Source: a virus
IMG/VR virus record: IMGVR_UViG_3300027969_000045
DNA: 64,000 bases
Strand: one strand, 5' to 3'
Numbering within the stretch: position 1 is the first letter of the stretch; every line of letters starts with the position of its first letter. The notes under the pieces are model-generated. The model saw only the letters and a program-made list of their open reading frames with translations. It ran no database searches and had not been told where the DNA came from. Made by a program: the position numbers and the translations under genes. Of this stretch, positions 2,826-13,319 are shown one piece after another.

Positions 2826-2919
2826 TATAAATAATAGTGCCTTGATTGGCTGACACTTTTTAGGGTAGAGAGGAGGCAGAAATGCCTCTTTTCTTGTATA
2901 AATACCTATGTCAGCCAAT
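2826..2919 (+). ncRNA. Candidate two-hairpin antisense sRNA/leader between tandem late promoters
   Basis: TATAAATA 2826-2833; stem TGCCTTGA/TTAGGGTA with loop TTGGCTGACAC; GAAA-capped terminator-like stem 2868-2893; TATAAATA 2897-2904; TGTCAGCCAAT 2909-2919 is the reverse complement of 2845-2855. Confidence 0.55.
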
Positions 2920-2931
2920 TTAAGAGTAGAA

Positions 2932-3747
2932 ATGATTTACTACACTTACGCATATTTGCGTGAAGATAAGACACCTTATTACATAGGCAAAGGAAAAGGT
3001 AATAGGGCATATAGAAGAAGCAAAACAGATATTAAACCACCAAAGGATAAATCAAGAATATTAATACTCAAAAAGAACTTAACAGAAGAAGAAGCATTTA
3101 AGCACGAAATCTATATGATTGCGGTGTTTGGCAGAAAAGATTTAGGAACTGGTATTCTTCATAATAAAACTAATGGGGGTGATGGGTTTTCTGGATTTGT
3201 TCCAAGTGAAGAAACCAGAAAAAAATTGAGTGAGGCAAATAAAGGAAGAACTTTTTCGCAAGAACATAAAGAAAAATTAAGTATAATAAGAAAAGGCATA
3301 AATCTTTCAGAAGATACTAGAAGAAAGATAGGAGAATCTGGAAGGGGGAGAACACCTTGGAATAAAGGTAAAACTCTTTCCGAGGAAACTAAAAGAAAAA
3401 TAAGTGAAGCACATACAGGAAAATCACTTTCGGAAGAAACTAAAAGAAAAATAAGTGAAATGAATAAAGGTAGAAGCAAACCTCCTCTTTCGGAAGATAC
3501 TAGAAGAAAAATAAGTGAGGCAAATAAAGGAAGAAAATATACAATCATCAACAAACCACAATACGAAATAACTTTTAATAATAATGAAAAAATCATTATA
3601 TATGGAAAATTAGAATGGTGCTTACATAATGGATACAATTCTTCTAGTTTATATAAAGTCCAAACCAAAAAATGGAAAAAGTATAAAAATATAATTTCTG
3701 TAATTAAACTTGATACTGCTGTGCCACTCGTAACACTGGCACACTAA
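2932..3747 (+). CDS. GIY-YIG-like homing endonuclease with NUMOD3 repeats
   Basis: YYTYAYLRED..PYYIGKG N-terminus; about six (L)SEET(K/R)RKISEA-type repeats; the track start is 2908 but ATG 2932 fits the late promoter better. Confidence 0.85.
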   Translation: MIYYTYAYLREDKTPYYIGKGKGNRAYRRSKTDIKPPKDKSRILILKKNLTEEEAFKHEIYMIAVFGRKDLGTGILHNKTNGGDGFSGFVPSEETRKKLSEANKGRTFSQEHKEKLSIIRKGINLSEDTRRKIGESGRGRTPWNKGKTLSEETKRKISEAHTGKSLSEETKRKISEMNKGRSKPPLSEDTRRKISEANKGRKYTIINKPQYEITFNNNEKIIIYGKLEWCLHNGYNSSSLYKVQTKKWKKYKNIISVIKLDTAVPLVTLAH

Positions 3748-4433: not shown

Positions 4434-4441
4434 TATAAATA
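4434..4441 (+). promoter_or_regulatory. T4-type late promoter
   Basis: TATAAATA 24 nt before the HNH gene. Confidence 0.75.
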
Positions 4442-4465: not shown

Positions 4466-4966
4466 ATGAAACTTATACCAGAATATGAGGCATATAGTGT
4501 CACCGAAGACGGTGTAATTTATTCACACAAAAAACCAGGAGGAAAGGGAAAAGGCAAAATTGTTGATTATTCTTATAAAAGGCAACTAAAACCGCAAACC
4601 AACCACAAAGGATACTTAAATGTTATTTTGGAACAAGGTAGTTTTAATGCTAAAACTATGCTTATTCACAGAGCAGTAGCATTAGCATACATTCCAAATT
4701 CAAATAATTATGACACCATAAATCACATTGACGAAAACAAAACAAACAATCACGTATCAAATCTTGAATGGATGAGTAATGCTGACAACGTAGCATATTC
4801 ACAAGCAAAAACAAGACTAATACAAACACCAGAGGGTGATAAAATAGAAATTACTAATTTATCAAAATGGTGTCGTGAAGTTTTAGGACTAAAATCATCA
4901 GGGAATATGTTAAGGAGTTTGAGAAATCCTAATATGCCCTGTATGGGATATAAATTACTTAAATAA
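4466..4966 (+). CDS. NUMOD4-type HNH homing endonuclease
   Basis: YEAYSVTEDGVIYS N-terminus; IHRAVALAYIPN...INHIDENKTNNHVSNLEWMSNADN. Confidence 0.9.
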   Translation: MKLIPEYEAYSVTEDGVIYSHKKPGGKGKGKIVDYSYKRQLKPQTNHKGYLNVILEQGSFNAKTMLIHRAVALAYIPNSNNYDTINHIDENKTNNHVSNLEWMSNADNVAYSQAKTRLIQTPEGDKIEITNLSKWCREVLGLKSSGNMLRSLRNPNMPCMGYKLLK

Positions 4967-6680: not shown

Positions 6681-7052
6681 ATGAGTAAAGATTGGGAAGT
6701 AACTGTAATTACAGACTCTGGATTTTTTAAGAAAGTAAGAGTTGATGATTGTATTACAAGACAAGATGCAGAAGCAACAGCACTAGGTATGACTGGTGGT
6801 AAAAGAGTTGCTATGAGCAATCCAAAGACATATAATGATGAACCAGAATTTGAATCTGATTATTCTTATAGTCAACCTATTCGGCAATCTTCCTACAGTG
6901 GAGGGACGAGTGAATTTGAAATGTATATGGGTTTGATTGGGTCTGTGGGATTTCTTTGTTGGCTTCTTTGGATATTTTCTCCGATTCTTTCTTGTCTTCT
7001 AGCAATAGGTGTTATTTTGTTTGTGATTGGTATTCATCTTAGGTATAAATAA
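6681..7052 (+). CDS. Hypothetical membrane protein
   Basis: ORF track; two C-terminal hydrophobic segments. Confidence 0.75.
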   Translation: MSKDWEVTVITDSGFFKKVRVDDCITRQDAEATALGMTGGKRVAMSNPKTYNDEPEFESDYSYSQPIRQSSYSGGTSEFEMYMGLIGSVGFLCWLLWIFSPILSCLLAIGVILFVIGIHLRYK

Positions 7053-7064
7053 AATACCTTTCTT

Positions 7065-7149
7065 GCTGGAGTTAGCATAGAGGTCGAATGCACCGCACTT
7101 GTAATGCGGCACTTAAAAGTCATCGCAGGTTCAAATCCTGTCTCCAGCT
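7065..7149 (+). tRNA. tRNA-Thr(UGU) with a long variable arm
   Basis: Acceptor GCTGGAG/CTCCAGC; D-stem GCAT/ATGC; anticodon arm CCGCA-CTTGTAA-TGCGG; variable region CACTTAAAAGTCATC; T-arm GCAGG-TTCAAAT-CCTGT. Confidence 0.88.
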
Positions 7150-10232: not shown

Positions 10233-10643
10233 ATGTTGAAAACTAAAATGAATCCCGAAGTTAAGCAGAAGTGGATTGATGCTCTGCGTTCTGATAAGTA
10301 TGAGCAGGGCAGTGAGAAACTCCGCAGTGTGATTGGTTATTGTTGTCTTGGTGTTCTGTGTGACCTTTATTCGCAAGAACATAATGTTGAGTGGAAGTTT
10401 AGAGGAAATGAAGAAACCAATCTTCAACCTATGGACTATTGGTATTTTGATGGAGATAGTGAGTTTCTACCTGAATCTGTAATGAATTGGGCAGAACTGA
10501 AAACTCATAATCCTACTCTGCAAGTTGATGTTGAAGATAATGATCATGAAGATGGTTGGTGCTATGAAGATGGAATTTCAGGTATAAATGATTCTGGTTG
10601 TACTTTTTCACGAATTGCGAGTCTTATTGAAGCACATCTATGA
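10233..10643 (+). CDS. Conserved phage protein (W..ALRS..Y.QG...CCLGVLC motif)
   Basis: ORF track; recurrent phage motif; start could be 10248. Confidence 0.8.
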   Translation: MLKTKMNPEVKQKWIDALRSDKYEQGSEKLRSVIGYCCLGVLCDLYSQEHNVEWKFRGNEETNLQPMDYWYFDGDSEFLPESVMNWAELKTHNPTLQVDVEDNDHEDGWCYEDGISGINDSGCTFSRIASLIEAHL

Positions 10644-10661
10644 TTGAGTCTCGTGTTGAGA

Positions 10662-10720
10662 TGTGCCAGTAATCCTTCTGGCACATAACATCCCCAAACC
10701 CCTCCAATCCGTGCTATGAT
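10662..10720 (+). promoter_or_regulatory. Palindrome-promoter cassette 7
   Basis: TGTGCCA 10662-10668, TGGCACA 10679-10685, TGc-TATGAT 10715-10720. Confidence 0.88.
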
Positions 10721-10744: not shown

Positions 10745-11164
10745 ATGTCTGTTCCTTTCACAATGAACTACAAAGAACTTTATTCTCAGGAAACTGTTGA
10801 TAAAATTGAAGAACTGATTGCTGATTCTTATGCTCTGGATGATATTGTAGATTTCATTGCTGAAACTTCGGAAGAATCTTTCCGCAGTTATTATCAAACC
10901 TATGTTGAAACTGGTGAAGAGTATTCTTATGAAGCAGTAGATGCTTTCATTGAAGAGTTTGGTCTTCATTCTTTGGTTGGTGATAACTTTCAAGACTCTT
11001 ATCGGGGTCAATATGATTCCAAAGCAGATTATGCGGAGAGTTATGTAAGTAAATGTTATTCTGTGGAAGTTCCTAGTTTTGTGGAAGTTGATTGGGAAGC
11101 ATCATTTGATAATATGGATGTTGTAATGAGTGATGCTGGTTATGTGTTTGACAATCAATTCTGA
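10745..11164 (+). CDS. ArdA-like acidic antirestriction (DNA-mimic) protein
   Basis: Very acidic; YRGQYDSKADYAE...VPSFVEVDWEA...GYVF resembles the ArdA C-terminal pattern. Confidence 0.6.
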   Translation: MSVPFTMNYKELYSQETVDKIEELIADSYALDDIVDFIAETSEESFRSYYQTYVETGEEYSYEAVDAFIEEFGLHSLVGDNFQDSYRGQYDSKADYAESYVSKCYSVEVPSFVEVDWEASFDNMDVVMSDAGYVFDNQF

Positions 11165-12386: not shown

Positions 12387-12488
12387 CTAAATATAAATGT
12401 CTGTTGGTACGGCAATACTCTACAGATAAGATTGGGTGCTCTTTTTGGGCACCTTTTCTATTATAAATAGTATTGCCGTACCAATAGA
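12387..12488 (+). ncRNA. Candidate two-hairpin antisense sRNA/leader between tandem late promoters
   Basis: CTAAATATAAAT 12387-12398; stem GTCTGT/ACAGAT enclosing TGGTACGGCAATACTCT; terminator-like GGGTGCTC-TTTTT-GGGCACCT-TTTC; TATAAATA 12462-12469; 12469-12488 is complementary to 12400-12419 (19 Watson-Crick + 1 GU). Confidence 0.6.
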
Positions 12489-12494
12489 ATAAAA

Positions 12495-13232
12495 ATGACT
12501 TCACAAAGTCCAAGAATTTACTTATATAAAATTACCTTTGAAGAAGTTCCATATTACTATTATGGAGTAAAAAAGGAAAAGAAATATAACGAAGAATATT
12601 GGGGTTCTCCATATACAAATAAATGGTGCTGGGAACTTTATACACCAAAGAAACAAATACTTCAACTCTTTGATTATACTGATAAAGGTTGGTTAGAAGC
12701 ACTTGGAGTTGAAAAAAGAGTAATCAAACAATTTTACAATACCGATAAATGGTGCTTGAACGAAAATGTTGGTGGTTTGATGTCATTAGAAATTAACAGG
12801 AAATCTGGGAAAAAATCAGCCAAAACAAATAAAAAACAAAATACTGCTATATTTGGATTAACTAAAAAACAGTTGAAAGAACAAGGAATACTTGGAGGAA
12901 AAAAATCTTATGAATTGGGTGTTGGTATTCACTCGTTAACAACAGAACAAATAAGAGAAAATAGCAAAAAGGGGGGGCAAAAAACAAAAGAACTTGGTAT
13001 TGGTGTTTGTGGATTATCTTTAGAACAAAGAATAGAAATTGGCAGAAAAAACTACAAAAATGGAATAGGTCTTGCTTCTATAACCAAAGAAAAAAGAAAA
13101 GAAATAGTGAAAACAACTAATTCTCAAAGATGGATGTGTCTTGAAACTGGTCATATAACAACATCTGGACCACTTACAAAATATCAAAGAGCAAGAGGAA
13201 TATCTACCTTAAAAAGAGTAAGGTTAGTATAA
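12495..13232 (+). CDS. GIY-YIG-like homing endonuclease
   Basis: IYLYKITF...YYYGVKKE...YWGS; repeated G(V/I)GI..LT.EQ..E..KKGG units; A-rich composition; late promoter. Confidence 0.75.
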   Translation: MTSQSPRIYLYKITFEEVPYYYYGVKKEKKYNEEYWGSPYTNKWCWELYTPKKQILQLFDYTDKGWLEALGVEKRVIKQFYNTDKWCLNENVGGLMSLEINRKSGKKSAKTNKKQNTAIFGLTKKQLKEQGILGGKKSYELGVGIHSLTTEQIRENSKKGGQKTKELGIGVCGLSLEQRIEIGRKNYKNGIGLASITKEKRKEIVKTTNSQRWMCLETGHITTSGPLTKYQRARGISTLKRVRLV

Positions 13233-13260
13233 TCTGTCTCGCACGAGTCCAATGATACGG

Positions 13261-13319
13261 TGTGCCAGTTGTAGCACTGGCACACTATATCCCCAAACCC
13301 CTCCAATCCGTGCTATGAT
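13261..13319 (+). promoter_or_regulatory. Palindrome-promoter cassette 9
   Basis: TGTGCCAGT-TGTAGC-ACTGGCACA 13261-13284, TGc-TATGAT 13314-13319; 13289-13335 is identical to 10690-10736. Confidence 0.88.

Follow-up and report, generated by a model that had tools for sequence, protein, structure and literature searches.

The window analysed here is a stretch of 64,000 nucleotides (64 kb) from IMG/VR virus record IMGVR_UViG_3300027969_000045, and it belongs to a T4-like cyanomyovirus with 33% G+C in which Pfam recognises gp23, the prohead scaffold, the tail sheath, the large terminase and gp6. A compact control module occupies positions 12387-12494 and is followed without a break by an open reading frame (ORF) for a 245-aa probable homing-endonuclease-type protein, the two together forming an inserted cassette (Table 1). 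This copy is referred to as case 2, and a second copy nearer the start of the window as case 1. In addition, the window holds two tRNA genes, at 587-660 and 7066-7148; the latter starts 15 nt past an exact TATAAATA at 7044-7051, which suggests that its expression may be driven by a late promoter. The ORF at 10745-11164 encodes an acidic protein of 139 aa with a weak match to the antirestriction protein ArdA (E = 0.001, below the curated cut-off).

Table 1. Parts of the control cassette in the window, with the basis for each assignment
Feature	Position	Strand	Basis
Inserted cassette, control module plus nuclease-type ORF	12387..13232	+	Empty-site comparison with L203
P1, upstream late-type promoter motif CTAAATA	12387..12393	+	Match to NATAAATA; putative activity
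SL1, local stem with variable complementary bases in the loop	12399..12427	+	Fold of the predicted 60-nt RNA, covariation
5' arm of the long-range helix	12400..12419	+	Complementarity, fold, compensatory change across the family
Candidate sRNA, predicted ~60-nt P1-to-terminator RNA	12399..12458	+	Fold; putative
Intrinsic-terminator-like hairpin (8 bp, 5-nt loop) plus TTTTCT	12434..12459	+	Fold, terminator scan
P2, nested late promoter TATAAATA	12462..12469	+	Exact T4 late consensus; predicted start ~12475
3' arm AGTATTGCCGTACCAATAGA, leader of the nuclease mRNA	12470..12489	+	Complement of 12400-12419
Probable homing-endonuclease-type gene, 245 aa	12495..13232	+	Divergent GIY-YIG-like N-terminus, repeat-type DNA-binding C-terminus
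Second cassette copy (case 1), before the GIY-YIG-like/NUMOD3 gene starting at 2932	2826..2934	+	

The module opens with CTAAATATAAAT (12387-12398), which carries P1. The stem of SL1 is formed by GTCTGT (12399-12404) and ACAGAT (12422-12427) with one G-U pair, and the strands of the terminator-like hairpin are GGGTGCTC (12434-12441) and GGGCACCT (12447-12454), followed by TTTTCT; this terminator was also called by an independent terminator scan. The two arms of the long-range helix pair over 20 bp with a single G-U, enclosing both the terminator and P2 in the loop, and 5 nt (ATAAA) separate the 3' arm from the ATG at 12495. Along the path of read-through transcription, P1 precedes the 5' arm and the terminator sits between the arms. 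As a sigma-70-like (early-type) promoter was found ahead of the gene upstream of the cassette, read-through into the cassette is plausible. No clear Shine-Dalgarno sequence was found before the 12495 ORF, and the AUG itself is unpaired in the fold. The sequence-only reading from which this analysis set out had listed these parts, and all of them are present at or within 1-2 nt of where it placed them, with the gap between arm and ATG coming to the 5 nt given here.

The structure stands out strongly within the window. The module RNA folds at -51.6 kcal/mol compared to -19.7 +/- 3.1 for shuffled sequences (z = -10.3; none of 200 equally good), and the module is the longest inverted repeat of the 64 kb. 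When the leader was compared with the upstream 110 nt at each of the 124 TAAATA sites on both strands, case 2 had the best arm pairing and case 1 the second best. Taken separately, the predicted 12399-12458 RNA forms SL1 and the terminator (-21.7 kcal/mol, z = -4.4), whereas a leader beginning at P2 would be unstructured (-3 kcal/mol). Within the window, the only good complement of the SL1 loop is its own leader, and further targets for the loop were ruled out, none having been found there. A search with the covariance models of Rfam 15 yielded no family for the module, and at E <= 1 returned only the two tRNAs from the whole window.

The 245-aa product of the downstream ORF has relatives in the Synechococcus phages S-SRM01, B3 and B23 at 46-52% identity. 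It had no match in Pfam (for the N-terminal 102 aa, none even at E <= 10), in PHROGs or in a PDB sequence search with a 26-member profile. Foldseek returned nothing significant, the best GIY-YIG match being 1yd3 (UvrC GIY-YIG) at E = 4.8, and hhalign against the W1-type family of cassette-linked nucleases gave nothing significant for the catalytic domain. The 26-member alignment nevertheless contains an RIY...YYYYG motif with invariant E73 and N89, and the N-terminus of the AlphaFold model has the beta-beta-alpha-beta-alpha topology of GIY-YIG domains, at a pLDDT of 50-68. For residues 103-245, hhalign showed homology (99.9%) with the C-terminal part of another cassette-linked nuclease family, and the Atlas neighbours are NUMOD3 proteins with GIY-YIG or SegE_GIY-YIG (scores 0.94-0.95). 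The gene also behaves as a mobile element, being present or absent at a conserved site, found in many contexts and present in two copies on five contigs. The contigs encoding the exact 245-aa protein, examined for transcript-like ends, are ordinary DNA contigs. Motif, weak fold topology, C-terminal homology and mobility, with no family match, point to a probable homing-endonuclease-type gene whose GIY-YIG identity is putative.

Relatives of the ORF were found in 210 stretches of IMG/VR contigs, 80 of which were fetched, and essentially all relatives share one upstream order: (A/C)TAAATA, 5-6 nt, a stem-loop, a terminator hairpin with a T run, TATAAATA, a complementary leader, 5-8 nt and the ATG. 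A second pattern search, which used only the 3' half of the terminator and TATAAATA, yielded more than 119 additional loci. The 96 new unique modules from this search all have an upstream TAAATA and a cognate arm, pairing at about -23 kcal/mol in each gene class. Together, 71 + 96 loci gave 144 unique modules with a constant order of parts, from uncultured T4-like cyanophage contigs and the isolate S-SRM01. P1 is present as TAAATA in 143 of the 144, placed 5-6 nt before the stem-loop (ATAAATA in 101, CTAAATA in 40), the 5' arm starts 5-7 nt past P1 across the family, and P2 reads TATAAATA in 139 of 144. Megablast of the region against isolate phages gave no match, and isolate relatives were found by protein search and sensitive DNA search only; among isolate genomes, the cassette occurs only in S-SRM01, at four places. 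In about ten modules (L004, L007, L023, L027, L055, L061, L065, L066 and L078 among them), a short duplication between terminator and P2 yields a degenerate extra promoter box, arranged as TTATAAAC, 4-6 nt and TATAAATA.

Cases 1 and 2 had been described as lacking any primary similarity. This holds for the arms only, as promoters, T run and leader are common to both and the two belong to one homologous family. Case 1 resembles members of its subfamily, such as L052, over the whole length, and L052-like intermediates link it to case 2.

Pairing of the arms is maintained across this family by compensatory change. On a MAFFT alignment, the variable arms of the long helix fell one column out of register and the slid control scored higher; cognate and non-cognate duplexes were therefore compared without an alignment. 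Cognate arms pair at -22.9 +/- 1.7 kcal/mol compared to -9.7 +/- 4.4 for 4970 non-cognate combinations, and in 56 of 71 modules the cognate arm is the best partner. The helices of the 144 modules contain 148 G-U pairs and no A-C mismatch, an asymmetry showing that selection acts on the plus-strand RNA and not on the DNA or the other strand. The local SL1 helix is likewise under selection, as 82% of its positions are paired in 71 modules against 12-54% when slid, and the same modules give 47 double-change cells where shuffles give 21 +/- 3 (0/500). The terminator helix is 93% paired in the 71 modules, and its sequence is highly conserved. Per-column entropy, used as a test of faster arm evolution, was blurred by mixed subfamilies, and diversifying selection of the arms is for that reason not claimed.

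Late transcripts of T4-type phages start about nt 5-6 past the late promoter motif. In the family, pairing of the leader sets in sharply at this position, with 65-71 of 71 modules paired at nt 5-6 past TATAAATA compared to 8-21 of 71 in the four preceding bases.

The cassette is not tied to one gene. It precedes at least five families of nuclease genes, three of them GIY-YIG-like (the W1 type with NUMOD3, the W2 type and a YYSYEE type) and two HNH-like, where classes were judged from N-terminal motifs, with a Pfam NUMOD3 match on the W1 copy in the window and the two HNH-like types resting on the motif. Identical arm sequences recur before different nuclease families, and the arms do not track the family. 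These results bear out the proposal of the sequence-only reading that the module is general, portable and conserved in structure, and the contig scan it called for, with the downstream genes tabulated, returned a nuclease-type gene in all classifiable cases. Its further claim that the module travels with free-standing endonucleases stands for at least five families, with the qualification that two of the four nuclease-like genes in the window lack it. These are the HNH-type ORFs at 2349-2825 and 4466-4966.

The first of these ORFs (HNH_5/HNH) lies directly upstream of case 1, so that two nuclease genes stand in tandem; the second (NUMOD4 and HNH_3) has TATAAATA at 4434 and no masking helix. 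Seven modules of the family have no ORF and appear relic-like. In one such relic, L133, the arms are still complementary (-22.4 kcal/mol), and in another, L119, arm pairing has been lost (-8.6 kcal/mol), which fits decay following gene loss.

The boundaries of the insertion can be read from a relative with an empty site (L203), in which the stop of the upstream gene (87% identical) adjoins the sequence found past 13232 in the window. As this empty site has no TAAATA, P1 arrived with the inserted cassette, and the insert, 12387-13232, begins at P1. The possibility that P1 is a pre-existing promoter of the target site was rejected on the same comparison. Other occupants are found at this insertion site in relatives, and since these include different nuclease ORFs, the site is a recurrent landing place for mobile nucleases. 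In L220, L221 and L253, a different GIY-YIG-like ORF (YYYVYATFF..GNFYIGSR) occupies the intergenic site, starting ~40 nt past the stop of the upstream-gene homologue and lacking the two-promoter cassette. A palindrome, GTGTGCCAG-N-CTGGCACAC followed by ATCCCCAAAC, forms an intergenic repeat at 13233-13300 and 10648-10699, past the nuclease stop and past the ORF at 10233-10643, respectively; it is found at the same gene boundary in relatives and directly follows the insertion site where this is empty.

Taken together, these observations make it probable that the module is a portable cassette for 5' control of free-standing homing-endonuclease-type genes, carried by freshwater T4-like cyanophages and acting through a layered cis mechanism of terminator, mask and nested late promoter. 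Such a cassette would keep the nuclease silent on RNA entering from upstream and would allow limited late expression. Transcripts from the early-type upstream gene or from P1 would mostly end at the internal terminator. Any read-through RNA would form the 20-bp helix between 12400-12419 and 12470-12489, ending 5 nt short of the AUG, and this helix should block ribosome loading. With P2 inside the loop of the helix, late transcripts would begin at approximately the first base of the 3' arm, and so would lack the 5' arm and have an unstructured, translatable leader. Finally, the joint conservation of P1, the local stem-loop and the terminator makes it probable that a ~60-nt RNA with the 5' arm is produced as well, and this RNA may damp the late mRNA in trans.

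The read-through hairpin acting in cis, which the sequence-only reading had set against its own proposal, is the better-established part of this mechanism. With the terminator in the loop, few read-through RNAs can form the long helix, and a cis mask alone therefore explains neither the conservation of P1 nor the co-varying local stem-loop. Such a mask does not readily account for a terminator within the loop together with what appears to be a dedicated promoter. A principal role in trans was weighed alongside the layered cis mechanism. The cis mechanism is ranked first, as the likelier of the two, with the trans role second; they are not mutually exclusive.

In the trans account, which is possible and which we consider less probable, the P1-to-terminator unit would chiefly be the gene for a ~60-nt antisense-like RNA, made late beside the nuclease mRNA. 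Its 9-15 variable bases would pair with the P2 mRNA over the ~15 nt at its 5' end, blocking ribosome loading or triggering decay. Nuclease output would thereby be held low at any genome copy number, and as the arms differ, each RNA would control its own gene. Stated more generally, and tentatively, the unit may be a regulatory RNA acting in trans on the late nuclease mRNA that is encoded on the same strand through an inverted repeat, is "antitoxin-like" with a variable specificity loop, and belongs to a cassette mobile between unrelated homing endonuclease families. The sRNA-like architecture recognised in the sequence-only reading agrees with this, the family having a conserved late-type promoter motif, a co-varying stem-loop displaying the complementary bases, and a predicted terminator.

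Several results favour a trans-acting RNA. P1 is almost invariant and came with the cassette, the 5' arm follows it at a fixed spacing of 5-7 nt, the local stem-loop shows covariation of its own, separate from that of the long helix, and the predicted RNA folds into just these two hairpins. The base predicted to be the first of the P2 mRNA is exactly where pairing sets in, and the 4 nt preceding it seldom pair. After the cost of opening the stem-loop, the net energy of trans pairing is -18.2 kcal/mol for case 2 and -9.1 for case 1, with -15.2 +/- 2.1 across the 144 modules, and the two window copies are orthogonal, cross-pairing at only about -2 kcal/mol. A trans-acting sRNA of this kind would also not be redundant with known biology, as none is known in T4-type phages according to the reviews (PMC3014915, PMC12197685).

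Against this account, the ~60-nt RNA is itself a prediction from sequence, and the start sites and termination efficiency that it presumes are carried over from T4 and not from cyanobacteria. No orphan small-RNA halves were found: all 83 of the 83 units detected from the stem-loop/terminator side have P2 and the cognate arm, and orphan small-RNA genes were rejected on this count. As the halves are never apart, cis linkage is obligate, and the pairing is accounted for just as well by a role in cis. Nor is orthogonality strict. L009 and L017, which lie on one 284-kb contig (IMGVR_UViG_3300027541_000009), share the same leader arm and cross-pair like cognates (-23.9 and -24.4 kcal/mol); the other four same-contig pairs show no full cross-pairing. 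In the window copy, furthermore, complementarity extends five bases upstream of the predicted P2 start, into sequence that only read-through RNA would contain.

An improbable third account places the action of P1 at the level of DNA or transcription, such that polymerases from P1 stopping at the terminator would occlude P2, or the tandem late promoters would capture the late machinery. In nearly all modules, only ~3-5 nt separate the end of the T run from the P2 motif, a geometry that would favour interference, and P1 and P2 have a common motif in similar downstream contexts. However, this account leaves the co-varying local stem-loop unexplained, offers no reason for the leader complement that the P1 transcript has to contain, and has no precedent in the literature searched. 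The last account, that the inverted repeat acts as DNA (as a cruciform, or as a site for recombination or for recognition by the nuclease) or arose by chance as a palindrome in AT-rich sequence, draws on the mobility of the nuclease, the frequency of repeats at element ends and the binding of I-TevI to an operator overlapping its own late promoter (PMC2988022), yet was rejected as very improbable, since the z-score of the fold, the cognate duplex test with its family-wide covariation and the occurrence of the same arms with different nuclease families all speak against it, and pairing kept on the plus-strand RNA only, as seen in the G-U/A-C asymmetry, excludes both chance and a DNA-level repeat.

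Homing endonucleases are selfish genes that need near silence to be tolerated. T4 solves this by combining a hairpin with a late promoter, and the known examples have up to now been regarded as having evolved one by one. In the phages examined here, control lies in a standard mobile part common to at least five nuclease families in hundreds of uncultured lake cyanophages, in which the paired bases vary freely at a pairing energy constant to within ~2 kcal/mol. Should the small RNA act in trans, it would be the first class of trans-acting regulatory sRNA in T4-type phages, closing a gap that the T4 review points out, and would be the first RNA-based dosage control of homing endonucleases and a compact set of orthogonal RNA-leader pairs. 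If the cassette acts in cis only, it would still be a clear natural case of layered fail-safe control by terminator, mask and timed promoter.

The genes for the trans-acting antisense RNAs of type I toxin-antitoxin systems and of plasmid copy control usually lie on the opposite strand or run divergently. The candidate RNA resembles these RNAs in being short, in combining a recognition loop with a terminator hairpin and in its complementarity to the region where translation of a potentially harmful gene starts; a variable loop would set its specificity. It differs in that its partners are always adjacent on one strand and in that trans action is, in this case, a prediction.

Among phage RNAs, the T4 review knows of no trans-acting regulatory RNA in T4-type phages (PMC3014915), and a 2025 review of phage small RNAs has CfrI as its sole entry for cyanophage endonucleases (PMC12197685). 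CfrI of cyanophage S-PM2 (Millard et al. 2010), as outlined in these sources, is an RNA of ~225 nt on the opposite strand that overlaps F-CphI and psbA (PMC2984593, PMC12197685). By that outline, it shares with the candidate RNA its link as a non-coding RNA to a cyanophage homing endonuclease gene; the candidate differs in being ~60 nt long, in lying upstream of its target and on the same strand, and in owing its complementarity to an inverted repeat. S-PM2 has in common with the 245-aa protein only the C-terminal region of a neighbouring ORF.

Closer to the cassette are the 5' UTR hairpins described by Dassa et al. (2009) for metagenomic free-standing endonuclease genes, where 15 of 16 genes had one and ten of the hairpins contained TATAAATA; two conserved motifs pair on the stem, and the arrangement was read as Aeh1-type control (PMC2677866). 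Compared by description, the likeness extends to a 5' UTR hairpin of endonuclease genes, in many cases with TATAAATA. The published account mentions no terminator, second upstream promoter or separate small RNA (PMC2677866), and it concerns marine loci that split host genes, whereas the cassette sits between genes of lake cyanophages.

The core logic of the cassette is that of T4 and Aeh1. A stable RNA structure sequesters the ribosome-binding site on upstream-promoter transcripts of I-TevI, I-TevII, I-TevIII, segB and Aeh1 mobE, and the position of the late promoter in the T4 and Aeh1 cases leaves the 5' strand out of late transcripts (PMC2988022, PMC3014915). The T4 genes e, soc and 49 also combine a translational mask with a nested late promoter (PMC2988022, PMC3014915). 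I-TevI in addition binds an operator overlapping its late promoter (PMC2988022). In cyanomyoviruses, the late motif is NATAAATA (PMC2984593). As this logic is established for T4/Aeh1 and was proposed for the Dassa hairpins, the central mechanism of mask and nested late promoter is known control and not new. The suggestion that this is an undescribed system therefore has to be narrowed: a hairpin with a nested late promoter was already known from T4 and Aeh1 and noted before metagenomic endonuclease genes (PMC2677866, PMC2988022), and what was not described in the literature searched is the upstream late-type promoter motif at fixed spacing (143 of 144 modules), the co-varying local stem-loop and the internal terminator.

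Like the T4/Aeh1 masks, the cassette has a stable helix over the start region of a nuclease gene and a TATAAATA late promoter that would free late transcripts of the 5' strand, so that expression would be confined to late infection by several layers of control. Unlike them, it has no clear Shine-Dalgarno sequence. The 5' strand of the T4 masks comes from long early or middle transcripts, whereas that of the cassette has its own late-type promoter motif, a co-varying stem-loop and a terminator. Finally, the T4 cases evolved individually, whereas the cassette is a portable unit of ~105 nt common to several nuclease families.
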